A stretch of 64,000 nucleotides of DNA from the NCBI GenBank assembly GCA_028522875.1, contig GCA_028522875.1_3659.1. One strand, 5' to 3'. The notes beneath the pieces were generated by a model. That model was not told where the DNA came from and did no database searches. It saw only the letters and a list, made by a program, of their open reading frames with translations. The first letter of the stretch is position 1. Each line of letters begins with the position of its first letter. Source of the stretch: a phage. The translations under genes and the position numbers were made by a program. Shown here piece after piece: positions 5,036-44,045 of the stretch.

Positions 5036-8000
5036 ATGGCTGATATTAAAGTTGTCAGAATTGAATCTCTTCCTGCCACTACCGCAGTGACAGAGGATGA
5101 TTACCTGGTTGTTCAACAACCAGACCTGACTCGTCGTGTAAAAATTGGCGATGTTGTCCATGTGGATGGGACTGTTTCTCATGTAATCTCCTTTAAGGAA
5201 GGTGGTAAGTTAAACGGCCCAATGGATTTTGCCTACTTCGAAGAGGAAGACCTCTACCTGCGTTGGAAAGGCGAATTTCCGCACACCGTTCCTGCACTAT
5301 CTTCACCGTACTCCGATGGTGGGATTACTGATGCTGCATGGATGGTATATACAGATCCATCATTAAGAGAGGAGCTGGAATCAACTATTGGCGCATCCAT
5401 GATTATGACAGCTGAAGGTCAGTCTGTCCAGGATGTAATGGATGTTACAGTTAAGACCGCCAACGATGCTAAAGCACTTGCACAGCGGGTAGATTTTGGT
5501 ACCGTGCACACTGTAGGCGATGTTATTCACCTTGTCAATTTTGTTGGCCCTGCAGTTATTGAAGAGGGAAGAACTACTAACTACCCTTCCGTAGCAGCTG
5601 GTGAAAAATTCCTGAACGGTGTGGTATCTCGTCGTGATACTACAACTGTTGATGGTATTTTCCGTGGCGCTACCTCCGGAGCTATGTATACCATTGCAGT
5701 AACCAACGGTGTAGCAACAACAAAAAGAATAGCACTTCGTGATGAATTTAAACGCCTAGAGGCAAACAACCCAACAAGAACCGTTATTCGTGCTGGTGAT
5801 GATGTAAACACAGCCGGGTACTTGCAGCTTGATGCAACAGGTCGTTGGGGCATGTGGAACCAACAGACATCTTCATGGCAACCTCTTGCTATAGAGCAAG
5901 GTGGTACAGGTGCCAGAGATGCCGCAGGTGCACGTATTAATTTAGGAGCTTTTTATAAACAACGTGCAGCCCTTGAGGCAAATTTCAATATTAACAATTT
6001 GACTGGCAATCAGGATGGTGTATACTACCAGCCCATGACTGCCAATGCCACCGAGGCAAATGGTTACCCAGCAGGTTCTGGTGCTGGTCACCTGATTGTT
6101 TGGCAGAACAATGCTAACGGCGGTGCAGGTTGTCGTCAGGAATACTATCCATTCTCTAACGTAGATGTTTGGTATTTGAGAACCTATCAGGCCAACACAA
6201 ATCAGTGGACTGCATGGCAGCCGATGGTCAGACCTCGTAACGATGATACCTTCAGATCTCATATCGGCCTTGGTAAAAACAACTCACCAGCCTTCGGGCA
6301 CCTTTACTTAGCTCAATACTCTGGAGATGTTAAATCTGCCTCAGGTATTCTCCATGGAGATAAATATAATACTGATGGTGTTCTTGAGCATGGTTATAGG
6401 ATCTACTCTGAGGTAAGAAACGACAATAAGGCTTGGTTGACAATCCACCTGCACAAAGGTGCAAAAGGATCTGAAACCCATAGATATTTAGGTTTCCGCG
6501 AAGACGGCGTGCTAGACTGCCCTAAATATATGCAGGTTGGGGATCTTACTGGTCAGCTGACAAACTGGGGACTCGGAGAGTGGATCCGTAGTTCAGGAGC
6601 AGAAAGAGGCTTCTGGGGATCCAAGAAAGCCGCCAAGATGGTCATCTGGGATGGTGGGATGGATGAATCCGGTAACGGCACTCTGGAATGGGGTGTTTAT
6701 AACAACCGGAAGGCCAAGTGGGAACCTTTACCGCAAGCCGCAGGTGGTACTGGAGCTACAACTTTGGCAGAGGCTCAGAATCTGTTTAGAGTTCCTATAG
6801 CTGCAGGCGTAAAAGATTTCTTAACGCTGCCAAGAACCGCAGGGATGGAAGATGGGAAATACTACCCGATTATAGTTAGAACAGATCCGTATTATGCTCC
6901 AACTACTGGCACCGATATTACCATAGTTACTAGGTCGTCATCTGGTGGTGACCCCATGAACTGTGCTACCTTACAGTGTCATTATAGAACTGGTGGGTGG
7001 ACAGATAGAGGGGACTCTTTCTACGGAGTAGTAAATTTCTACCAGAATGAAAAAGCAATTCTTGGGATGGTTGCTCCAACAAGGGGTAAACAAGAATATG
7101 TTGCTTTCTATGCAGAGGCGCGTGCTTTCCCTGTCAGCATATACGCAAGTAGAAATGTTTTAGAGGTGTTTACCAAAGAACAAGACTACCAGGTTGGTTC
7201 TGTAACAAACAATCAGGACGGTGTTAAGTTTTGTGCTCCGTTAGAGTCAGCAGACTTAAATCTTGCGATAAAGGGTGATAATGTAACTAATACCAGACCT
7301 CTTGCGGAGTTTAAAGGAACATCAGGTTTTTACACAGGCGGTGGTACTCAGTGGCACTACATCGGCACACCTGAACGCTATGCGGTGATGAGTAAAATGA
7401 CCATGCCTAAAGTTGAGCTATGGGCAGATGGTATCGACTACCTATGCCCTGGTAGTCAGACCACAAGGAAAGCACTGTTCTCTAATGCTGGATTCCAGGC
7501 AGCATCTGAAGGTACAGAGGACTTAATTAACAACACATTTACTTCCAAATGCGGCAAGGGTGCAGGTCTGAAAGGCCAGTCAGAGTTCAGGTCTACCCCA
7601 GAGGCTGGACAGGTAATTGTCAGAGATGTTGTTGGTTCCGCACATAAGTTCTTTAACTTCAACAAAGACGGCACATTCTACCCTCCTGGCGGTTATGTTT
7701 GCCAGACAGGTGCGGATTGGAACAATCAGTTTGGTAACACAAACCCGTCAAAAATAATGGCTGGTAATGTTAACGGACCTGAAGGTTCCATGGTTGTAGC
7801 AGGGTTGTCGGTTGGTTTTTCTGGAAATTATGCATTCCAGATGGCTGGTCGTCTTGATCAGTTATACACCAGGTCTATTGAGGGTGGTAATCATAGAGCG
7901 TGGAACAAGGTAATCCAACACCGTGGTCAAGGCTTGGGTAATAGCAATCTTAATGATTACAAAGCTGATCGTGAAGGTATTTATCATCAAGAGGCAAACT

Positions 8001-34023: not shown

Positions 34024-34287
34024 TCAGAAACCCTCTAAAAAGCTCTTGTAGAAAACAATCTCAGTATCCACACCAGTCACAATCTTGTCGTTCCTGATTT
34101 CATCGGTAAGATAGGTGTCAAAACGCAGAACCTGTGTGGTGTTGTCACACATCCACTCAGCTGTGACCATTGCGAAAATCTTAGCATCTTCATTATCTGG
34201 TGTGAATGTTACCACCTCACCGCACTTAAACTTTTCGATAGGCTGAGTGTTAGCTTTCGGTTCTGCGATAGTGATTTTTGTGGTCAT
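34024..34287 (-). CDS. small protein, member 3 of a tandem 87-aa paralog triplet
   Basis: 87 aa; RBS aggaggag; shares M(A/T)T...F.s..K.kK......G(T/E)VV ... lp ... vtE.D..I.ilGE pattern with the two upstream genes. Confidence 0.5.
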   Translation of the reverse strand: MTTKITIAEPKANTQPIEKFKCGEVVTFTPDNEDAKIFAMVTAEWMCDNTTQVLRFDTYLTDEIRNDKIVTGVDTEIVFYKSFLEGF

Positions 34288-34828: not shown

Positions 34829-36310
34829 TTACTTAGCGTACTCGATTAATTCCACAGTTTTCCCAAAGCTCGGGATATAATTTTTATTATACCCTTCGGT
34901 TAGAACCCATAAAGTATCGTACTTTTTCCACTTGTTGTCAACAGCCTTTTGTTCAAAGTTATGCTCAAAGTATAGGTCGGTCAGGACGATGACATCTTTT
35001 GCATTCGGTATGTTGGCATCCAGATACTCGAACACGCAAGCAGCTGTTGTGCCCCATGTTGAGTGGACCTCATAGTTAATCATCTCGTCTATGTTGCCGC
35101 GAGTGTATACTTTAACCTCTCCAACCTCAGTTGACCAACAGAACATTGTAACCTTAAACTCTTTATACAGATTGCACAATCCGGTGATTTCATTGAACAT
35201 TTTCTTTAAAGTTCTTTGAGAGATCGAGCCAGAAACGTCTAAAGCCACCACAATATCTATAGTGTTTTCCGGATTACGACCAGGAACAATAACGTGCTGG
35301 TTCTTGTTTATAGCCCCAACTTTTCGCATTGTGCTGGTCAAAGACCCAGATCGGCGACCAGGTTTTCTGTAGGTCAGTTCAGCCTTTCGTTTAGACAACA
35401 TGCGTTGCTTAATGATGTCTATATAGTTGATTACAGGCTTACCTCTGTTCTTGACAAACTCACGCACCGCCTCGGGGCAACGGCCTCCGGACGCTTGCAT
35501 TGCTGCCTCCAGCATATCACCAGAGTCCTGCATGGCCTGATCTTTATCAGATTGGCTGATTACAGGTTGTGGCTGATCATACCCCATAGCTTTTCCAAGA
35601 TCATCACTGGTGCCACCGTTCCCACTCATGTGATCATCTGTTTGTCGCTTATCACCTTGAGAGTTCTCACCTTTACCGTTCTTACTTTTACCGTTATTCT
35701 GATCTCTTTGCTTATCAAGAACTGCATAAACGTTCTCAGCAATCCATCCATGAAACTTCATATCGCAGTAGCAGCTGGCTAAGAAGCCAAAAGGCTTACC
35801 TTTCACGAACGTAGTGCTTTTCCCCTTCGGGAAGAAAACACAAGGAGGCTTGCTAAAGTCCACCACAAGTCCTGTGTTGATAACGTGATCACAAGCAATA
35901 TTGAACAGTTCCGGCTCAAAGCTTTTACCACGGACCAGGTGATCACAGATAATATGCCCCACCTCATGCGACAGAAGAAAGGCCACCTCTTTCACAGATT
36001 TGGGGGAATAGAAAACCTCAGCCATCTCAAACTGCTCGTCAGTTAGAGAAGCCTTAAGAATAGCCTTACGTTCATCAGCCAACCCCATAATGAACTCAGG
36101 ACTGTAATAGATGCGTTTATGGTCGGTTGCCATGGTGGAGCACCATGTATGGTTTTCTACGAACTGCAATCCTGACAGCAGTGTGCCATAAAACGGCAGC
36201 TTTTCAAGGAGATACATACGTGCAGCCTGCAACATTCTCAGGGCATCATCTTTTTGTGAGGCAATGATTTCTGAACTTCTGATATCCATTAAAACTCCAG
36301 AAGGGGCCAT
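34829..36310 (-). CDS. vWA domain protein with N-terminal HExxH metallopeptidase-like motif (DUF2201-like, MoxR partner type)
   Basis: 493 aa; HEVGHIICDH (HExxH); C-terminal vWA MIDAS motif DIVVALDVSGSIS (DxSxS); acidic/Gln-rich linker; start codon sits in a GC hairpin. Confidence 0.55.
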   Translation of the reverse strand: MAPSGVLMDIRSSEIIASQKDDALRMLQAARMYLLEKLPFYGTLLSGLQFVENHTWCSTMATDHKRIYYSPEFIMGLADERKAILKASLTDEQFEMAEVFYSPKSVKEVAFLLSHEVGHIICDHLVRGKSFEPELFNIACDHVINTGLVVDFSKPPCVFFPKGKSTTFVKGKPFGFLASCYCDMKFHGWIAENVYAVLDKQRDQNNGKSKNGKGENSQGDKRQTDDHMSGNGGTSDDLGKAMGYDQPQPVISQSDKDQAMQDSGDMLEAAMQASGGRCPEAVREFVKNRGKPVINYIDIIKQRMLSKRKAELTYRKPGRRSGSLTSTMRKVGAINKNQHVIVPGRNPENTIDIVVALDVSGSISQRTLKKMFNEITGLCNLYKEFKVTMFCWSTEVGEVKVYTRGNIDEMINYEVHSTWGTTAACVFEYLDANIPNAKDVIVLTDLYFEHNFEQKAVDNKWKKYDTLWVLTEGYNKNYIPSFGKTVELIEYAK

Positions 36311-36322
36311 TGGCCCCTGTCA

Positions 36323-37366
36323 TTATTTAACGTGTTTGAAAATACCTGCCAACTCGGTCATTGTCATGCGGGTGGTCTTCATAAGATCTGTCATAGCTTT
36401 CTCCATAATTGGAGATACTACCATAAAGTTTCCTTTAGTGAAACCTTTATTCCAGTCGGTCACCAACAGTGGTTTAAGTCCAGCTCCAAGACGTTCACCA
36501 GTTAAAGCACAGCATTTGCGAATATACGAACTCTTAAATTGGCTGAACGACAGATCAACTTTCATACCTACATCGTAGAACGTTTGACAATAGAAAGTGT
36601 AAGCTTTGGCAATCTCAACATCATCAGGTAGTGCAGGAACCTCTTCTGTAAGCTCCTCTTCGACCTCCTGAGTCTCTTTTTCCTCTTCATGCACCTGTTG
36701 CGTCATTTCTTCAATCTCTTCTGTGATAGGCTCGTTTACAATGTCGGAAATGTGCTTCTTGGGTGCACGATAAGTAACTTTAGACATCGGTAGCATATCT
36801 TCCTCCTCTTCTTCGTCAAAGAGTGCTAGTTTATCCTCTTCCGTTCCATATTGCAAGATGAAATCTTCAAAAGTATAATCACCTTTCAATTTCTCCATAC
36901 GCTCTTCGCTCAGGTGGAGCATCATCTGCTGGACAATTTTTCGATCAGTTTCGTCTTTAATCAAGACTGCAGTCTTTTTATCTACCAGACAGTCCTTTAG
37001 AGAGTTGCATCTCAATCCCACCACACAACAGTTATCAACCGCATAAGGACCTTCATCATCTATCCGCTCCAGAGATGGGTAGAAAGGATTTCCCAGCCCG
37101 TTTTCATCTGTGTGCATGTCAAAAGGTATAAGGGTATAGTCGCATACTCCATCTCCTAAAAGTTTTTTACCAAATAGGAGGTATTCTTCCCATGACAGGT
37201 CGAACTCTATATCTCGTTTCCGTGCATTATTCTGTTTGCGTCTATATTTTTTGAGCAAGCGCTCTAACTCTTCTGGTGTATAATATTTTTCAAGATTCAT
37301 GAGTCGTCTCTCGTGCTCTGTAAGTGAAGAAATCGTATCAATTGTCTCAACAGATGTCAACATCAA
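36323..37366 (-). CDS. HNH endonuclease (HNH_3-like His-Me finger) fused to acidic C-terminal region
   Basis: 347 aa; motif PSLERIDDEGPYAVDNCCVVGLRCNSLK resembles HNH_3 (s.dRId...gY...N...v....N..K); Glu-rich C-terminal half; internal MSKVTYRA repeated at start of gene 38631. Confidence 0.5.
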   Translation of the reverse strand: MMLTSVETIDTISSLTEHERRLMNLEKYYTPEELERLLKKYRRKQNNARKRDIEFDLSWEEYLLFGKKLLGDGVCDYTLIPFDMHTDENGLGNPFYPSLERIDDEGPYAVDNCCVVGLRCNSLKDCLVDKKTAVLIKDETDRKIVQQMMLHLSEERMEKLKGDYTFEDFILQYGTEEDKLALFDEEEEEDMLPMSKVTYRAPKKHISDIVNEPITEEIEEMTQQVHEEEKETQEVEEELTEEVPALPDDVEIAKAYTFYCQTFYDVGMKVDLSFSQFKSSYIRKCCALTGERLGAGLKPLLVTDWNKGFTKGNFMVVSPIMEKAMTDLMKTTRMTMTELAGIFKHVK

Positions 37367-37373
37367 AAACGTG

Positions 37374-37402
37374 TTGACTTTACTCTAACTCCACAATATA
37401 GT
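37374..37402 (+). promoter_or_regulatory. sigma70-like promoter TTGACT-17-TATAGT in divergent intergenic region
   Basis: -35 TTGACT 37374-37379, 17 nt spacer, -10 TATAGT 37397-37402; 40 nt upstream of ATG 37443. Confidence 0.5.
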
Positions 37403-37442
37403 GCACCCATTCGAAAGAAAACTAACATAGGAGCACTTACTT

Positions 37443-38342
37443 ATGGCAAATCTTAACAGTTTTAGTACGCGGTGGAAACAGGACATAACAACCAATCTTT
37501 CAGCTGGGGACATCCTTTCTGCAATTTACGAGGCTTTAGATGATAAAGCTACTTCAAAAGCGGTTTGTACCAACCCACTAATTCCTGTAGTGATGAAGGT
37601 TATTGAGCGCAGATTGGTATCTGGGTCTGATAAGTGGACATATTTAGATAATGAAGGACACACCTATTCCAATGGGTACGTCGATATAAAAGTAGAATAC
37701 GCGGTATCATACCGCCGGAGCGGTTCTGTAACTTTCAACTTCTCTGGAGGTTTTCGATCTCTGGCTACCTCACCTTTTGTTTCCTCAGAGGAGAAGTATG
37801 AGCTACCATTTCTTTGGATGATGGCTAACGCGACAGGAAAAACCCCCGTTAGCATCCGAGTAAAATACAACTACAACGGATCTAGTAAGATCTATGCCGA
37901 AAGTGTCTCAGCAAGTTTTTATTTTGTGATGGGGGATGGAATCCTCAAACATATAAAGATGTGCGATATGCATGATGTTATAAATGAAGTGACTGATAAG
38001 AATGTTCTAGTGAAAGACCTCAACAATTTTTATACACCCGGAGACTATTACGTCAGCCGTCCACTGTGCATCTTTAATGCCGCACACCCTCTAGGTGAGT
38101 ATTTGATCGCCAATAGCGATATTGCCAATAACCGCTTCGAGGTAGCAAGAGTTCAGAATGAGGTATTGACATCTTGCAAGAGCGGTGATAAGTTTACCGA
38201 AGAAGAGATGGGTGTTTTAGAAATGATGGGATATAAGTGTAGCCTTTGGGTAGATGAGGTGTTTAATGATTGCATCTATGGACAGGATATTTACCCATTA
38301 AAGAAGTATACTGATACAAGTTTAATTTATGCGAGGGTTTGA
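37443..38342 (+). CDS. hypothetical protein
   Basis: 299 aa; RBS aggagc; first gene of rightward early block. Confidence 0.5.
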   Translation: MANLNSFSTRWKQDITTNLSAGDILSAIYEALDDKATSKAVCTNPLIPVVMKVIERRLVSGSDKWTYLDNEGHTYSNGYVDIKVEYAVSYRRSGSVTFNFSGGFRSLATSPFVSSEEKYELPFLWMMANATGKTPVSIRVKYNYNGSSKIYAESVSASFYFVMGDGILKHIKMCDMHDVINEVTDKNVLVKDLNNFYTPGDYYVSRPLCIFNAAHPLGEYLIANSDIANNRFEVARVQNEVLTSCKSGDKFTEEEMGVLEMMGYKCSLWVDEVFNDCIYGQDIYPLKKYTDTSLIYARV

Positions 38343-38617
38343 CTATGATGAAGGCATGTGGTAATGTATATTACGTCGGTGAACATGTTCAGGCAGACAG
38401 TGTGTGGAAATCTATTAAGTCCACCACTGACGATGCCTTTCTGAGTGGACTATGTTTCCCCAATCCGGGAGACATCCTCCCCCATCCTGGAGATTTTGTT
38501 GTCAACAAGATGGACGGTTATACCGTGTGCCTGATGGTTGAAAAAATCTTTTTAGACACTAGACACAATCACCGTCTTGTGTTAAAATTTCAAGAATGTA
38601 AAATGACAATTGCCTAA
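38339..38617 (+). CDS. hypothetical small protein
   Basis: 92 aa; ATGA overlap with upstream gene. Confidence 0.4.
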   Translation: MTMMKACGNVYYVGEHVQADSVWKSIKSTTDDAFLSGLCFPNPGDILPHPGDFVVNKMDGYTVCLMVEKIFLDTRHNHRLVLKFQECKMTIA

Positions 38618-38630
38618 GGAGACCTTACCG

Positions 38631-38987
38631 ATGTCTAAAGTTACTTATCGTGCAGCTATTTACTGCAATGAACACCCAATCAATAATGATGGTCACTGCC
38701 TTTTTAAAGAAAATCAATTGGGCTGTATTGTCCTCCCTGATGAAGGGGAAGGTTATCTGATTGCATTGACAGGGTTTGAACCTGAGGCTCTGGAAGCCAA
38801 TCTGGACTACCTGGTAGAAGAGGGTGCTGCAGACCTGGTTGCCAATGGCCTCTCCATAAGCCTTGACGAAGTAGAGCGCTTCATGGGCAATTACCGTGTA
38901 GTGCGTGAGTTTACTATCGAGGTGGAAACTCCCGAGTGGAGTAGCACTGAAACTAATGCCGAAGAAAAAGAAGAGGAGGTAGAATAA
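38631..38987 (+). CDS. hypothetical acidic protein; start region duplicated (inverted) inside HNH gene
   Basis: ATG 38631 with RBS aaggag (track start 38610 less likely); N-terminus MSKVTYRA encoded by 29-nt sequence identical to 36764-36792 on opposite strand. Confidence 0.45.
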   Translation: MSKVTYRAAIYCNEHPINNDGHCLFKENQLGCIVLPDEGEGYLIALTGFEPEALEANLDYLVEEGAADLVANGLSISLDEVERFMGNYRVVREFTIEVETPEWSSTETNAEEKEEEVE

Positions 38988-39244
38988 TGAAAATACAGAT
39001 CTTGACTAATGCCGAGAAGATGTTTATTGAAGATACACCTTTTGAAGCTGGTGAGCTACAGTTCGTTTATTTTGTTGACTTAGATAAGGTGTTTCCTGCA
39101 CTGAATCTAGGTTTGGATGAAGTTCCTCATAAGGTTTTGTGCCAAGTTGTTCGTGCCTTAGCGGCAGAGGGGGAGTTCCACACCCTTCAAGATGTCCAGA
39201 CCTACGGGTATCTTGAACTACAACGAGAAGAAGAGGTGGACTGA
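38987..39244 (+). CDS. hypothetical protein
   Basis: 85 aa; ATGA overlap; acidic C-terminus. Confidence 0.4.
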   Translation: MKIQILTNAEKMFIEDTPFEAGELQFVYFVDLDKVFPALNLGLDEVPHKVLCQVVRALAAEGEFHTLQDVQTYGYLELQREEEVD

Positions 39245-39246
39245 TA

Positions 39247-39627
39247 ATGGCTCAGTGGAAGACAACAGTTGACCTTCATGATCAGTGGTTAGGACGCATC
39301 ACTGAAGACGGGAAGCTAGTGGAGTGGGACAATAAGCATGTTAGCGAGTTGGCAAGTATTGTGGCTGGCAAGTTACGCTCCAAGTTCCCTGAACAACTGG
39401 ATCCTGATAGTTCAAAGTTCGATCCTGAGTTGGAGGATGTTGTATACTACTTCGATACCGTGGATGACTACGATGCGTGGTTTGCAGCACGGGAGCTTTA
39501 CCCACAAGGCTCTGCTATGCGCCAGATGGAAGAAGATTATCCTCCGTGTGAGCAATTCAATAGTGCAATGACTTGCCTCTATGATTGGGCAGATAAGAAC
39601 CTTGTCTGGATTCGGACTGCATTTTAG
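39247..39627 (+). CDS. hypothetical protein
   Basis: 126 aa ORF in operon context. Confidence 0.45.
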   Translation: MAQWKTTVDLHDQWLGRITEDGKLVEWDNKHVSELASIVAGKLRSKFPEQLDPDSSKFDPELEDVVYYFDTVDDYDAWFAARELYPQGSAMRQMEEDYPPCEQFNSAMTCLYDWADKNLVWIRTAF

Positions 39628-39671
39628 TGGGCAGGAATGGCGGCAAGGATGCTGCTTAAGGAGTAGTAGAG

Positions 39672-39941
39672 ATGTTATACCAGCAATATGAACTTCGTGC
39701 AGAAAAAGAGTTAAATTTTGACAAAGATATTCACAGATATTATTATGGGAAAGTTAGAGGGCAAGCAAGAAAGTGTACTCCAACACTCTTTTATGCCAGC
39801 AGACGACTAGCGCCAGAAGAGGCAACAGCAGAAAGGGTTGCGTACAACTGGAGAGTCACGTATGATATTGACAGATTCGATGTGATATCTGTTTTGGAAA
39901 ACTTTGAAAACACTTACACACAAGTAGAGGACTTTTACTAA
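39672..39941 (+). CDS. hypothetical protein
   Basis: 89 aa; RBS aaggag. Confidence 0.45.
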   Translation: MLYQQYELRAEKELNFDKDIHRYYYGKVRGQARKCTPTLFYASRRLAPEEATAERVAYNWRVTYDIDRFDVISVLENFENTYTQVEDFY

Positions 39942-41125
39942 TGTCAAGAAACGTATTCGAAAGTGGTCAAATCACTGTCCGTGAGTTGCCAGCTATTATT
40001 CAGTTTGCCCAACGTCATAGCCGATCTGTCCTAATTTTGGGACCAATGGGTGTGGGTAAAAGCCAGGTGATGAAGCAGATCGCTGATAATATGTTCGGTG
40101 AGCGAGATGACAACCTTGTTGACGTGCGACTGTCAGATAAAGATCCTGCCGACTTATCTGGGCTACCTATCCCTGTAGAAGCGGATGGAACTACACGTAC
40201 AGTGTTTGCAATTCCAGAATTTTGGCCTGCGGATCCTGACTGGAGCGGAATTATCTTTCTGGATGAGCTCACTCATGCAGATAACTACCTGCAAAAGGTT
40301 GCAATGCAAATTATGCTTGACCACAAGTGCGGCACCTATGCATTCCCTAAGGGTTCTGTTTTTGTGGCTGCGGGTAACCGTTCTACAGATGGTGCGGTTC
40401 TTTCGGCGCTCGAAGCCCCTCTGGCTAACCGTTTTATCATTGTAGAGGTTACAAGCAATGCAGAGGTGTTTATTGAGGACTACGCATTCCTCAACGGGGT
40501 TCACTCCTCTGTAATTGGGTATCTGAAAAGAGTTCCATCAGCTATTGATAATTATGAGGCTATGGCTGAGATTAATTGTCCATCTTTTGCCACACCACGA
40601 TCTTGGGTTGCTGCATCTGACATCTTGCACGATTTTGACAGCGGTATTATTTCTGACGCTATGGCCCGTGTTCTTCTGCAAGGTGCTATTGGTCACACTG
40701 CAGCGGTAGAGATCTGGACATACCACACCAAGAAACGCAATTTACCGGAAATCGGTCGGATTATGGCAGGTGGCTGCAAAGAATACGTAGGTCCTAAGCA
40801 GCCAGACATTTTGTGGATTCTTGGATCTGAAGGTTGTATCGCTATTCGTAATATGATGGAAAATGCAAGTATCTCAGACGAAGATCTTGTCAGCTGCGTG
40901 GCAAACTTCCTCGATTTCCTTTGGGAAAACTTCAAGGACGAGAACCGAGATTTTGTATTCTCAGTCTTTATGGCGATGATGAAACCTAATGCCTTAGGAA
41001 ATGCCTTGCTTATAGGTAAAGGGCGTGACAAGATTGTTGCTCAGCTGATCAAAGCATACCCAAACCTGATGAAGATTGTAAAAGAGTTTGGTGAAGAGTT
41101 TAGCGCCATTTTGGCTAAAGCTTAA
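39941..41125 (+). CDS. MoxR-like AAA+ ATPase
   Basis: 394 aa; Walker A GPMGVGKS, Walker B IIFLDELTHAD, sensor/arginine region AAGNRSTDGAVLSALEAPLANRF typical of MoxR/RavA-type ATPases. Confidence 0.7.
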   Translation: MSRNVFESGQITVRELPAIIQFAQRHSRSVLILGPMGVGKSQVMKQIADNMFGERDDNLVDVRLSDKDPADLSGLPIPVEADGTTRTVFAIPEFWPADPDWSGIIFLDELTHADNYLQKVAMQIMLDHKCGTYAFPKGSVFVAAGNRSTDGAVLSALEAPLANRFIIVEVTSNAEVFIEDYAFLNGVHSSVIGYLKRVPSAIDNYEAMAEINCPSFATPRSWVAASDILHDFDSGIISDAMARVLLQGAIGHTAAVEIWTYHTKKRNLPEIGRIMAGGCKEYVGPKQPDILWILGSEGCIAIRNMMENASISDEDLVSCVANFLDFLWENFKDENRDFVFSVFMAMMKPNALGNALLIGKGRDKIVAQLIKAYPNLMKIVKEFGEEFSAILAKA

Positions 41126-41529: not shown

Positions 41530-41556
41530 CCCCGCTTCGGCGGGGATTTTCTATTT
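41530..41556 (+). terminator. rho-independent terminator
   Basis: ccccgc-ttcg-gcgggg hairpin followed by attttctattt. Confidence 0.65.
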
Positions 41557-41565
41557 GGAGTCATT

Positions 41566-42066
41566 GTGAAAATTAAGATCTTTGCTATTATTTTGAGCGC
41601 ACTTTTATCGCTGCCTGTTGTTGCAGCACCAAAACAAAAAGTATATCATACTTGCAAGCCCTCAGATACTAAGGAAAACATTCTGGCATGCAATATCTAC
41701 AGGGAGGCTAGAGGGGATGGCACGATGGGTATGCTGGCATCAGGGTTTGCCACACTAAACAGGAAATCTCACCCCAAATACCCAGACACTATAAGAAAGA
41801 TTGTCTACCAACCTAACCAGTTTTCGTGGACAAACCACGGCAAAACTTTTAAGGTGACAGAAAAAGATTCATGGGATCACGCTAAAAGTCTTGCAAAGAT
41901 GCTTCTAAAGGTCTATAATAACAACCATGTTGCATACATGGCTATGGACATAACAGGTGGAGCAACACACTACCATACAACCAAAGTACGACCGAAATGG
42001 GCAAAAAAGATGCAGAGGACAGCTCAATTCGGGAGTCATATCTACTACAAGGAGCGCAATAAATGA
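41566..42066 (+). CDS. secreted cell wall hydrolase, SleB/Hydrolase_2-like, with N-terminal signal peptide
   Basis: GTG start with RBS ggag; signal-like N-terminus MKIKIFAIILSALLSLPVVAAP; motifs NIYREARGDG ... TLNR ... YPDTIRKIVYQPNQFSW typical of SleB-type hydrolases. Confidence 0.5.
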   Translation: MKIKIFAIILSALLSLPVVAAPKQKVYHTCKPSDTKENILACNIYREARGDGTMGMLASGFATLNRKSHPKYPDTIRKIVYQPNQFSWTNHGKTFKVTEKDSWDHAKSLAKMLLKVYNNNHVAYMAMDITGGATHYHTTKVRPKWAKKMQRTAQFGSHIYYKERNK

Positions 42067-44045
42067 TTGTAAACAGTAATGAAACTAAAGCAGTACTAAC
42101 CGGAAATATGGAGGTCACCAGGGGCTCAATTTCTCTGAACAAAGAGACTTTTGGGCTAATCATTAAAGGGATTTACGAAGATAAGGTGCTGGCAAGCTGC
42201 CGTGAACCAATCTTCAATGCTGTGGACTCCCATGTTGAGTCTGGACGGGGTGATGTACCGATCATCATTCACTCTCCTACAGACCTTGAACCATACTTCT
42301 TTGTGCAGGACGTTGGATTGGGCATGTCGGAAGAGATGGTCCGCAACACTTTCATGAACCTCGGGGAGTCAACCAAGCGCAACAGCAACGCTCTGGTAGG
42401 TAATAAAGGTGTAGGTTCAAAGGCCCCGTTCAGCATGGTGGACACTTTCGATGTGATCAGTGTGCACAACGGTGTTGAAAGCACATATCTGTTGTTCTTG
42501 GATCAGGGTATCCCAAACGTTACCAAGATCCGCGAGCGAAAGACTGAAGAGCACAACGGGGTAAAAGTTCAGTTCCATGTTAAGAAAGAGCATGTTCTGA
42601 AATATCGCACTGCTATTGCGTCATGCCTACGCTATGCAAAGTTTCCGTTTACCGTTACCGACCCTATGACCAGTAAGATGCTGGAAGGTGACAAGGTTGA
42701 GGCGCAGTATCGCTACGAGAAAGATGGTTGGAAAATGACTATCCTGAAAGGTTATACCAGCTCTGATGAGAGCCGTGTGGTGATGGGACACCAACCTTAC
42801 CGCTCTAAGTTTCTGGAAACATTGACAGACTACCCTGCAATCTGTGTAGAGATCCCTATCGGGGATTGCAATATTAACCCTGGGCGCGAATGGACCATAG
42901 AGGGGCACGACGATGGTGGATTCCAGGATCGCCTGGAGGCCTTTGTCAAAGAAGGTATACGTCTTCGTGGGGCAGAAGTTGTTGCGGAATTGGAGACAGC
43001 AAAAACATCCTCAGAAGCACGTGAGATGATGAAGAACAGTGGAGTGTTCGGACACATCTTCGGCAAAAACTTTATGTGGAACCGTTGGGAAGAAACAGGG
43101 CTTGGCGACTTAGGCGATTGTGAAATTTTCGCTGGCGGCTTAAATAAAGGCCGCATAGGCTATGCTCGTTACGGAAAGTCGGAGTTCTTACGAGGTGTAT
43201 ACCTTGTATTTAACGACGGAGACGGCAAATATAACCGAAATAAGTGTAACTACTTAAGCGAGATCACCGGACGCAACGTTTTCTATTGCCGTAACACGGA
43301 TCTGATGGAAGAGTTTAAAGAAGCGGCACACCACCCGTTCTTTGCAGATACGGTCAAATTGTTATCAGAGCTCCCTCGCCGTCCTGTAAAGAAAGGTGAA
43401 ACAAAAACTCACTATGAGCCAGGGTATTGGGTTAAAAAACTTGAGAAAGATGGTTACTTCCGTCGTGAGCGTATTACTAAGGCAGAGTTCAAGAAGATTA
43501 AGCACTGCATTCCTTATGAGGGTGATATCCAACGTGGAAGTTGTTGGCTGGGACAGCTAAGTAACATCTACCAGCAAAATTATGACCGTGTGCGTGCGGC
43601 ACTCCAGATTCCTGAAGGGGAAGATCTGTACCTGGTATCAGAATCTCGTCTGCTTTGGACTGATCCTGATTGCCAGTATGTTACAGAGAAAAATGTGGAA
43701 CATTTGTTGAAAGAGGATGCCTGGAAATTCTTACTGACTCGCGCAGCAAATGAAACTTCATATGACAGCCTGTATAGACAATTAGGGAAAATTATCCCCA
43801 TGCAAGATTTTGGAAATTATCGGCCACATTTCCACAAGTGGGAAGGTAACACCGCGTGGAAGCACAGTGAGCTAAATCATCGTGCCAAAATCTTAATCGC
43901 CAACCGAGTCAAGTGCGGGAAGGCCTATATTGCAAGATTGGAAAAGAAATATCCACTTTTGAAGCATGTGGGCTTGAAATATTGGGACACTCCTGCTATG
44001 ATTGAATACCGTGAACTGATCGACGCAAAGAATAACACCAAATAA
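42063..44045 (+). CDS. rIIA-like protein with N-terminal GHKL (Bergerat-fold) ATPase domain
   Basis: 660 aa; N-box REPIFNAVDSH, G1 DVGLGM, G2 GNKGVGSKA; large gene followed by second gene as in rIIA-rIIB pairs. Confidence 0.5.
   Translation: MIVNSNETKAVLTGNMEVTRGSISLNKETFGLIIKGIYEDKVLASCREPIFNAVDSHVESGRGDVPIIIHSPTDLEPYFFVQDVGLGMSEEMVRNTFMNLGESTKRNSNALVGNKGVGSKAPFSMVDTFDVISVHNGVESTYLLFLDQGIPNVTKIRERKTEEHNGVKVQFHVKKEHVLKYRTAIASCLRYAKFPFTVTDPMTSKMLEGDKVEAQYRYEKDGWKMTILKGYTSSDESRVVMGHQPYRSKFLETLTDYPAICVEIPIGDCNINPGREWTIEGHDDGGFQDRLEAFVKEGIRLRGAEVVAELETAKTSSEAREMMKNSGVFGHIFGKNFMWNRWEETGLGDLGDCEIFAGGLNKGRIGYARYGKSEFLRGVYLVFNDGDGKYNRNKCNYLSEITGRNVFYCRNTDLMEEFKEAAHHPFFADTVKLLSELPRRPVKKGETKTHYEPGYWVKKLEKDGYFRRERITKAEFKKIKHCIPYEGDIQRGSCWLGQLSNIYQQNYDRVRAALQIPEGEDLYLVSESRLLWTDPDCQYVTEKNVEHLLKEDAWKFLLTRAANETSYDSLYRQLGKIIPMQDFGNYRPHFHKWEGNTAWKHSELNHRAKILIANRVKCGKAYIARLEKKYPLLKHVGLKYWDTPAMIEYRELIDAKNNTK

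Follow-up and report, generated by a model that had tools for sequence, protein, structure and literature searches.

The window, a stretch of 64,000 nucleotides, derives from a Vequintavirus, an rV5-like coliphage with ~99% identity to phages LL12, magaca and Murica. The earlier note on this DNA had described a MoxR-like AAA+ ATPase gene and a gene for a vWA protein with an N-terminal HExxH motif, and both open reading frames are present exactly at the positions and on the strands that it gave (39941-41125, plus; 34829-36310, minus). The two genes are ~3.6 kb apart, lie on opposite strands in different transcripts and diverge from a promoter region at 37332-37402, so that the pair is indeed split across a divergent promoter. 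The -35 boxes of the back-to-back promoters form an inverted repeat, and the same promoter sites are predicted in the record of phage Gotham.

As a separator of the pair, the earlier note had named an HNH endonuclease and six small genes. The count of six stands, but these genes encode 85-299 aa and are thus not all small; they occupy the interval that leads from the promoter to the ATPase gene, whereas a single gene (36323-37366, minus strand) fills the interval on the other side. We reject the identification of the latter as an HNH endonuclease: its product matches no HNH model in Pfam or NCBIfam and no Pfam model of any kind. The name is a PHROG/RefSeq label only, attached to this protein via phrog_3118 and to the DUF2201 protein via phrog_1314, and in the DUF2201 protein Pfam and NCBIfam likewise detect no HNH domain. 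Instead, the 36323-37366 protein is Srd-like, with matches to Srd/sigma70-decoy PHROGs at E values of 3e-15 and 3e-10; it was identified as the Srd homolog gp11 in the 2013 rV5 paper and is labelled an Srd-like anti-sigma factor in other database records as well. This gene is the first of the leftward unit and the DUF2201 gene lies downstream of it. The relative L008 carries a terminator-like hairpin at the position equivalent to the GC-rich hairpin between the two (Table 1). In the window, a tail-fibre cluster adjoins the leftward unit.

In the rightward unit, the 89-aa gene overlaps the start of the ATPase gene by 1 nt (TAATG). The top sigma70-like match of the region lies inside the 89-aa gene and might act as an internal promoter from which the ATPase gene is transcribed. 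The terminator-like hairpin follows the gene next downstream of the ATPase gene; the annotation of phage Gotham lists it as a terminator. The non-late region of the window also harbours rIIA, rIIB, helicase and DNA polymerase genes, as it does in N4-like phages.

Table 1. Features of the ATPase/DUF2201 locus, in window coordinates.
Feature	Position	Strand	Details
DUF2201-family gene (rV5 gene 12)	34829..36310	-	longest ORF 493 aa; zincin-like domain, flexible linker, vWA domain (predicted)
vWA MIDAS residues	34976..35239	-	D358-x-S360-x-S362 (35239-35225), T421 (35050-35048), D445 (34978-34976)
Conserved basic pair R319, R320	35351..35356	-	family consensus RPxRR; almost invariant in alignment A1
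Putative zinc site HEVGHIICDH (HExxHxxxxH)	35939..35968	-	translation; H115, E116, H119, H124
GC-rich 7-bp hairpin between Srd-like and DUF2201 genes	36302..36318		from sequence
Srd-like 'anti-sigma' gene (rV5 gene 11)	36323..37366	-	annotated start gives 36323-37300
Back-to-back sigma70-like promoters	37332..37402		TTGACA-17-TACGAT (-), TTGACT-17-TATAGT (+)
Six rightward-unit genes 5' of ATPase gene	37443..39941	+	299, 92, 125, 85, 126, 89 aa; no assigned function
Candidate internal promoter for ATPase gene	39718..39746	+	TTGACA-17-TATTAT, 11/12; consensus match only
MoxR-like AAA+ ATPase gene (rV5 gene 4)	39941..41125	+	394 aa; from motifs, profile search, structure model
Walker A GPMGVGKS	40040-40063	+	ATPase translation
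Walker B IIFLDE	40250-40267	+	ATPase translation
AAGNR	40367-40381	+	ATPase translation
R164 of PLANRF	40430-40432	+	ATPase translation
Intrinsic-terminator-like hairpin	41530..41545	+	CCCCGC-TTCG-GCGGGG, then T-rich tail

In the ATPase, the Walker A and Walker B motifs, N146/R147 and R164 are invariant among 26 homologs (alignment A2); N146 would serve as the sensor-1 Asn, and the conserved arginines may have the roles usual for such residues. By itself, the window protein yields sub-threshold Pfam AAA matches (AAA_5 with 16.7 bits versus a cut-off of 22; AAA_3 unlisted), so that further evidence from homologs, a profile search and a structure model was required to assign it to MoxR. At 31-36% identity (E about 1e-44), homologs match the Pfam families AAA_3, AAA_5 and bpMoxR, some of them weakly, and the A2 profile finds the Midasin AAA domains as its top PDB match (E 5e-10). 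The top 16 Foldseek PDB matches of the AF2 model (pLDDT 84.3) are NorQ and CbbQ structures, with E values of 4e-8 to 2e-6 and target TM scores of 0.55-0.65. This model places a beta-hairpin (residues 75-90) between strands 2 and 3 and a second, short hairpin (129-134) ahead of strand 4, where helix-2 and pre-sensor-1 inserts would be expected. Homologs, profile search and model thus support the prediction of a MoxR-class AAA+ ATPase, as called before.

The DUF2201 open reading frame contains two Pfam domains that both exceed their gathering scores, first PF13203 DUF2201_N (E 3e-28, 99.7 bits versus a cut-off of 23.2) and then PF09967 DUF2201 'VWA-like' (E 3.6e-11, 43.7 bits versus 26.4). Its start is likely the second ATG at 36289 (486 aa), which we favour because it is preceded by GGAG and the first ATG lies inside the hairpin; GenBank annotations and homolog lengths are consistent with this choice. 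The four residues of the putative zinc site, together with D141, are invariant in 38 DUF2201 homologs down to ~20% identity (alignment A1), the HExxH stretch weakly matches Peptidase_M48, and a profile search visualizes weak sequence similarity to MJ1213. The top fold-search lists held no solved structural relative of the N-terminal domain, so that the motif, the Pfam name and these weak matches are the grounds for calling it a zincin-like, putative peptidase. In the C-terminal part, the DVSGS stretch translated from 35239-35225 is the MIDAS motif: DxSxS and the downstream Thr and Asp are found on a Rossmann-like vWA fold, and D358, S360, S362, G420, T421 and D445 are invariant in the same 38 homologs. 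Both family assignments of the earlier note, for which it had suggested profile searches, hence hold, including that of an HExxH domain at the N-terminus of the vWA protein. With ~145 aa, the vWA domain is minimal and displays no obvious NorD-type finger insertion in the secondary structure of the model; therefore its docking mode may differ from the NorD kind. The basic pair R319/R320 is located directly before this domain in a low-confidence linker (pLDDT 60-66), where it could serve in docking or processing. Proteins of the rV5 group additionally carry two insertions in the N-terminal domain (alignment A1). In the literature searched we found no biochemical study or experiment on any DUF2201 protein or on the phage pair.

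A survey of co-occurrence, likewise suggested before, found the pair together in every informative related locus. At 68 of 70 informative viral loci in IMG/VR, the ATPase gene is immediately followed, within ~550 nt and on its own strand, by the DUF2201 gene; most of these 68 belong to one environmental clade with ~33% identity and are not independent events. Ten further loci without a DUF2201 gene all end less than 1.1 kb past the ATPase gene and were left out as uninformative. The two remaining informative loci, this phage and a Seunavirus-like relative, are the only ones with the split divergent layout, so that a vWA partner is found at all 70. Scanning of other phage lineages and bacteria revealed adjacency at 9 of 11 further loci; adjacent pairs occur in phAPEC6, Acinetobacter phage ABPH49, Aeromonas phage 2L372X, cyanophage S-TIM5 and Agrobacterium phage Atu_ph07, as well as on bacterial chromosomes where phage genes are absent from the vicinity. 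The adjacency is far beyond chance. Because it prevails at 68 of 70 loci, the divergent layout is derived: in the Vequintavirus/Seunavirus branch, a rearrangement moved the DUF2201 gene to the leftward arm, and the ATPase gene stayed on the rightward one. Among Vequintavirus records at 95% identity or more, the DUF2201 protein occurs in 119 and the ATPase in 118. Relatives with proteins of only 43-53% identity also retain the split layout and every motif.

Concerning timing, the bidirectional sigma70-type promoter region of the pair is outside the late morphogenesis unit. According to the rV5 paper, the two genes are carried by transcription units 10-1-238-164 and 11-26, the late unit comprises genes 27-81, and virion mass spectrometry flagged neither protein of the pair. 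Promoter type and gene order suggest early or middle expression. We propose, with a probability of roughly 80%, that the two proteins constitute one conserved MoxR/vWA-zincin module that is not a virion component and performs early or middle remodelling or proteolysis. NorQ-NorD, CbbQ-CbbO and Midasin suggest, by analogy, that the ATPase may form a hexamer docked on the vWA domain and that ATP hydrolysis may pull or twist the linker of the partner. This movement would remodel a client protein bound at the MIDAS site, and the zincin domain would presumably cleave that client, all inside the infected cell during the early/middle (replication) phase.

An assembly or maturation chaperone-protease that folds, assembles or processes tail or head proteins appears unlikely to us. 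Such a virion-assembly role was proposed for the jumbo-phage pair by Iyer et al. 2021 and is reported for the MoxR/vWA proteins of Acidianus two-tailed virus (ATV), cited as a precedent. In agreement, the phAPEC6 ATPase homolog gp265c was detected by virion mass spectrometry with 6 peptides and the pair is close to tail genes there, just as the leftward unit of the window has tail-fibre genes beside it. However, thymidylate synthase also appears in the phAPEC6 virion list, which therefore contains carried-over non-structural proteins, and the vWA partner gp264c is missing from it. Moreover, the pair is shared by podoviruses, myoviruses and jumbo phages, which differ in tail architecture, and by the bacterial chromosomes mentioned above. 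The genes gp24 and gp25 of N4 are middle genes, and the rV5 pair lies outside the late unit and is unflagged among virion proteins. The genomic context thus speaks mildly against a role in virion assembly.

Similarly improbable is a host-takeover or counter-defence protease that would recognise a host protein early in infection, for example a defence or a transcription/RNA-turnover factor, and degrade or inactivate it. The sigma70-type promoters, the location in the early region and the invariant HExxH site are consistent with this idea, as is the position of the DUF2201 gene directly 3' of, and co-oriented with, the Srd-like host-takeover gene. Yet the latter link is lineage-specific, since in Acinetobacter phage ABPH49 the Srd-like gene is on the other arm. 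Counter-defence genes are usually patchy in distribution, whereas this core gene pair is retained in phages with hosts ranging from Roseobacter to Pseudomonas to cyanobacteria and also forms a chromosomal operon in free-living bacteria. PADLOC returned no matches.

We give still less weight to an activase or metallochaperone that would serve a nucleotide-metabolism or replication enzyme in the manner of NorQD, CbbQO and CoxDE, in which HExxH would mark a metal-handling or metal-binding domain rather than a protease. NorQ and CbbQ are the closest solved relatives of the ATPase, and thymidylate synthase/ThyX, thymidylate kinase, 5'-3' exonuclease, dUTPase and thioredoxin/glutaredoxin are recurrent neighbours of the pair, with thioredoxin and Hsp15 in bacteria. 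(In another N4-like phage, the annotation of the dUTPase neighbour reads dCTP deaminase.) None of these enzyme genes accompanies the pair constantly, though, and the synteny may be incidental, as nucleotide-metabolism genes abound in the early regions of large phages. In addition, an invariant glutamate within HExxH, as observed here, is characteristic of a hydrolytic zincin. Finally, two functionally unrelated genes that only share the early region, as their different transcripts and distance might indicate, are very hard to reconcile with the adjacency at 68/70 informative and 9/11 further loci and with co-retention after the split.

The proposed MoxR/vWA-zincin module has known counterparts, and the observation of the pair is not new: the two genes already bear the names 'MoxR ATPase' and 'putative metallopeptidase / DUF2201_N' in GenBank and in the rV5 paper of 2013, and the pair type has been published for group 2.2 jumbo phages (MoxR AAA+ and vWA with N-terminal metallopeptidase; Iyer et al. 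2021, Viruses 13:63) and equals the conserved gp24/gp25 pair of N4. N4 gp24 (AAA ATPase) and gp25 (vWFA/DUF2201_N), which are transcribed as middle genes and belong to the set of 14 core genes of N4-like phages (Schitoviridae), are homologous to the window pair at ~20-27% identity, with the same domain architecture; our tblastn matches include genes annotated gp25 or 'N4 gp25-like' together with their neighbouring ATPase genes. In N4-like phages the ATPase gene is immediately upstream and co-directional, whereas in the window the two genes occupy opposite arms of a bidirectional promoter. The jumbo-phage pair belongs to the same two families and follows the same predicted chaperone/co-chaperone logic, phAPEC6 gp265c and gp264c being 25% and 28% identical to the window ATPase and DUF2201 protein (E 3e-32 and 1e-44), but is adjacent and near tail genes, in contrast to the early/middle context here.

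Cryo-EM of NorQD revealed a vWA 'finger' in the pore and a remodelled linker. NorD and CbbO (PDB 9qh4-9qhg, 6l1q) have such a pore-entering finger and lack the HExxH domain, whereas the phage vWA domain is minimal; the window ATPase also extends beyond the part aligned to NorQ/CbbQ by a helical C-terminal region (roughly residues 260-394). The clients of NorQ-NorD and CbbQ-CbbO, cNOR and Rubisco, are absent from phage biology. ATV likewise possesses a viral MoxR-vWA couple, but one that has no peptidase domain and is linked to the development of its tails outside the cell. Sulfur-oxidising gammaproteobacteria such as Sulfurivermis fontis encode chromosomal AAA_5-DUF2201 operons with the same two-gene unit and order; HExxHxxxxH and DxSxS are conserved at ~22% identity, and the operons adjoin Hsp15 and thioredoxin genes. 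The pair itself occurs in many large phages, and the rV5-type phage is unusual only in placing it on opposite arms of one promoter region.

The ATPase and DUF2201 genes were recovered exactly where the earlier note had placed them (see table). The 6.3-kb region that holds them shares 99% identity with Escherichia phages LL12, magaca, Gotham and Murica, and megablast against GenBank phages returned 122 matches, almost all of them Vequintavirus (rV5-like myoviruses). These records call one product 'MoxR ATPase' and the other 'putative metallopeptidase' or 'VWA-like domain containing protein'; in the 2013 rV5 paper, gene 4 appears as 'MoxR-ATPase' and the product of gene 12 as conserved hypothetical, with the domain PF13203 DUF2201_N. 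A literature search for MoxR in rV5 found no paper. In the original annotation of the rV5 record DQ832317, two overlapping ORFs of 441 and 81 aa (genes 12 and 13) stand in place of the DUF2201 gene, which is unbroken (486 aa) in the window and in other vequintaviruses; a frameshift error in the sequencing of that older record is the probable cause.

Coordinates of features in the window
Position	Strand	Feature	Product
34024-34287	-	264-nt gene, paralog	87 aa
34287-34550	-	264-nt gene, paralog	87 aa
34550-34813	-	264-nt gene, paralog	87 aa
34829-36310	-	DUF2201 gene (rV5 gene 12)	
36302-36318		GC-rich hairpin	
36323-37366	-	Srd-like gene (rV5 gene 11)	
37332-37402		two sigma70-like promoters, back to back	
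37356-37378		inverted repeat GTCAACA-N9-TGTTGAC	
37443-38342	+	gene matching phrog_12338	299 aa
39672-39941	+	small ORF before the ATPase gene	89 aa
39718-39746		best sigma70-like match of the region	
39941-41125	+	ATPase gene (rV5 gene 4)	394 aa
41566-42066	+	SleB-type cell-wall hydrolase (Pfam Hydrolase_2, E 2e-19)	
42063-44045	+	rIIA (HATPase_c_3)	

The MoxR assignment needed further work, because the ATPase as a single sequence gave only sub-threshold AAA hits in Pfam. When the PDB was searched with single sequences, the ATPase met only P-loop proteins of a generic kind (ClpB, ClpC, p97) and the DUF2201 protein met nothing, and profiles were therefore required. The database homologs of the ATPase fall into a first tier of rV5-like relatives (35-99% identity) and a large second tier (31-36% identity, E about 1e-44) with AAA_3 (MoxR), AAA_5 and sometimes bpMoxR Pfam hits. 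Invariant in a 26-sequence alignment are G37, G39, K40 and S41 of Walker A, D108 and E109 of Walker B, N146 and R147 of AAGNR, and R164 of PLANRF; the profile of this alignment matched Midasin AAA domains best in the PDB (E 5e-10). The best solved matches of the AlphaFold2 model (pLDDT 84.3) are NorQ and CbbQ, MoxR ATPases that work with the vWA partners NorD and CbbO, and the model places beta-hairpins at the sites expected for the helix-2 and pre-sensor-1 inserts. On this evidence we class the protein as MoxR-like, although on its own it stays below the curated Pfam cut-offs.

The partner matches DUF2201_N (E 3e-28) and the DUF2201 'VWA-like' domain (E 3.6e-11), both far over the Pfam cut-offs. 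Its first ATG (36310) falls within the GC-rich hairpin and lacks a ribosome-binding site, whereas the second (36289) is preceded by GGAG and agrees with the annotated 486-aa product and with homolog lengths. In 38 homologs, down to about 20% identity, H115, E116, H119 and H124 (HExxHxxxxH) and D141 are invariant, as is the complete MIDAS set, the metal site of the vWA domain (D358, S360, S362, T421, D445). The model (pLDDT 84.8) comprises a helical N-terminal domain, a disordered Gly/Asp/Lys-rich segment at 209-235 and a compact C-terminal vWA fold; the linker, modelled with lower confidence, carries a nearly invariant RR pair (family consensus RPxRR). A fold search with the N-terminal domain gave no solved relative among the top lists, and weak sequence matches led to M48 peptidases and the minimal zincin MJ1213. 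Its predicted zincin-like character is based on Pfam family membership, the invariance of the motif and these weak matches. The hairpin, situated between the Srd-like and DUF2201 genes, could set the level of DUF2201 expression, as an attenuator or by its effect on mRNA stability; a terminator-like hairpin occupies the equivalent position (6077-6100) in L008, a Seunavirus-like relative whose proteins are 43-53% identical to those of the window.

To assess co-occurrence across phage genomes, we used the ATPase profile to collect 80 viral contigs and ran both HMMs over each. A DUF2201 gene is present at all 70 loci with enough flanking DNA, and at 68 of these it starts no more than about 550 nt downstream, on the strand of the ATPase gene; at the 10 loci without it the contig ends in every case less than 1.1 kb past the ATPase gene. 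The two genes form a pair, as the earlier note had proposed. The same adjacent order occurs in bacterial chromosomes, in phAPEC6 (gp265c/gp264c, the latter annotated 'N4 gp25-like'), and in Acinetobacter phage ABPH49, Aeromonas phage 2L372X, cyanophage S-TIM5 and Agrobacterium phage Atu_ph07. By tblastn, 639 GenBank phage records encode the DUF2201 protein and 813 the ATPase, N4-like podoviruses and RaK2/121Q-type jumbo phages included; vequintaviruses retain both genes, with 119 and 118 records, respectively, at 95% identity or more. In Vibrio phage pv27 the 379-aa ORF after the ATPase homolog does not match the DUF2201 HMM. The N4 homologs in the literature, gp24 (AAA ATPase) and gp25 (vWFA / PF13203), belong to middle transcripts and account for 2 of the 14 genes in the core of N4-like phages. 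Apart from structural and polymerase genes, the pair is one of few gene sets that every N4-like phage retains; it is also common to rV5-like and jumbo phages, and Iyer et al. (2021) described jumbo phages with the same MoxR-vWA pair and an N-terminal metallopeptidase on the vWA protein. The gp24 and gp25 of the PhiKZ transposon-mutagenesis and PA5oct papers are other proteins bearing those names. Chaperone and redox genes recur beside the pair, namely Hsp20 in S-TIM5, glutaredoxin in Atu_ph07, a thioredoxin-domain gene in pv27, and Hsp15 and thioredoxin in bacteria (loci L091/L094), and hint weakly at a protein-quality or redox theme.

The original observation is thus correct and the pairing idea strongly supported. 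The pair is an existing annotation of a phage gene-pair kind already published, to which the present finding adds little; the one feature for which we found no earlier description is that this lineage has parted the two genes around a single bidirectional promoter. Among the 70 loci, only the vequintavirus locus and L008 (ATPase 53% identical) have the DUF2201 gene on the opposite strand, 3.6-3.8 kb upstream. The split recurs in Seunavirus 4MG, where one arm carries the Srd-like gene, then a small gene and the DUF2201 gene, and the opposite arm carries the ATPase gene. In ABPH49, an unassigned Vequintavirinae member, the ATPase and DUF2201 genes follow each other on one arm and the Srd-like gene occupies the other. 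This arrangement, together with the adjacency elsewhere, identifies the split as a rearrangement derived within Vequintavirinae; it was kept, with every motif intact, while the proteins diverged to 43-53% identity. Comparison with ABPH49 gave no support for the idea that the DUF2201 gene had simply been cut out of a place between the ATPase gene and its next neighbour, and the genes downstream were without detectable homology between the two phages.

The back-to-back promoters were predicted independently in the Gotham record, and promoters are reported between rV5 genes 10 and 11. Our promoter and terminator scan showed no overall enrichment over shuffles (18 versus 14.3 and 6 versus 5.4), and only sites with independent support were used. 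The -35 boxes of the divergent promoters form the inverted repeat, at which one regulator might act on both. Past the ATPase gene, the next gene is followed by a terminator-like hairpin. In rV5, gene 4 belongs to the proposed transcription unit 10-1-238-164 and gene 12 to unit 11-26; in the window the former runs on into rIIA, rIIB, helicase, primase and DNA polymerase. The succession of ATPase, rIIA, rIIB, helicase and DNA polymerase genes resembles the N4 middle region. Morphogenesis genes 27-81 of rV5 are a separate unit, the late genes of which (27-66) have a T4-late-like motif. Regulation and timing of the pair, with early/middle expression, are for the most part what we infer; a literature search for Vequintavirus transcriptomes found nothing relevant. 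That the pair is a virion-assembly chaperone has a precedent in ATV, and the phAPEC6 ATPase homolog was detected in virion preparations. We nevertheless consider this role unlikely: that virion list also contains thymidylate synthase, the position of the pair is not late, and it is spread over unrelated virion types and bacteria. Virion mass spectrometry of rV5 flagged neither protein as found.

The earlier note had the genes separated by an HNH endonuclease and six small genes. The count holds, with one gene between the promoter region and the DUF2201 gene and six (85-299 aa) on the ATPase side, but the endonuclease does not: Pfam and NCBIfam reveal no HNH domain in this protein, Srd-type PHROGs match it, and according to the rV5 authors it is a homolog of Srd. 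The DUF2201 protein, which has also been labelled 'HNH endonuclease', likewise lacks an HNH match, and the label, found in phrog_3118, phrog_1314 and the RefSeq records of Murica, FFH2, 4MG and Atu_ph07, looks like a propagated mislabel. The Srd-like neighbour and the early location would suit a counter-defence protease, a role that we regard as improbable, since the pair is conserved like core genes over very different hosts; NCBIfam and PADLOC scans gave nothing useful and hence no link to known defence systems. On the ATPase arm, the 299-aa protein is widely annotated 'putative alpha 1-3 fucosyltransferase', a name without Pfam or NCBIfam support; its sole match is a family of unknown function. 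The 89-aa ORF, called 'ATPase' by PHROG 13164 and several GenBank records despite its size, contains the best sigma70-like match and shares one base with the ATPase start codon (TAATG), an arrangement suggestive of translational coupling. The three paralogs stand in tandem immediately after the DUF2201 gene and within its unit (33/90 residues shared between the second and third in the table, 27/94 between the first and second). The SleB-type hydrolase, just upstream of rIIA, is placed in the early/replication unit and not in a lysis cassette.

We tentatively propose, with a probability of about 0.3, that the pair is an ATP-driven zincin protease in two pieces, in function a split AAA+ protease whose motor is separate from its vWA-guided peptidase, used early or in the middle of infection by at least three major phage groups (N4-like, rV5-like, jumbo) against a defined intracellular client. 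The domains, the motifs and the linkage of the two genes are shown by the present data; the most likely way in which the pair would work, by analogy with NorQ-NorD, is that the ATPase docks on the vWA domain of the DUF2201 protein and drives remodelling of a client held at the MIDAS site, which the zincin domain would then cut. The role of an enzyme activase or metallochaperone agrees with the closest ATPase structures but not with the invariant HExxH glutamate, and we regard it as improbable. If the pair is a split protease, the rV5-like layout shows that its parts are independent of shared transcription and translational coupling, and this natural split offers a handy system to manipulate each on its own. 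The client, once found, would give the DUF2201 family its first activity and supply a piece long missing from the picture of large lytic phages, among them the BASEL Vequintavirus set, used as models and therapy candidates. In the NorQ-NorD system the vWA domain is bound by a hexamer of the MoxR protein, which remodels the linker of its partner through ATP hydrolysis; CbbQ-CbbO and Midasin point to the same motor-on-vWA logic, which we suggest for the phage pair.
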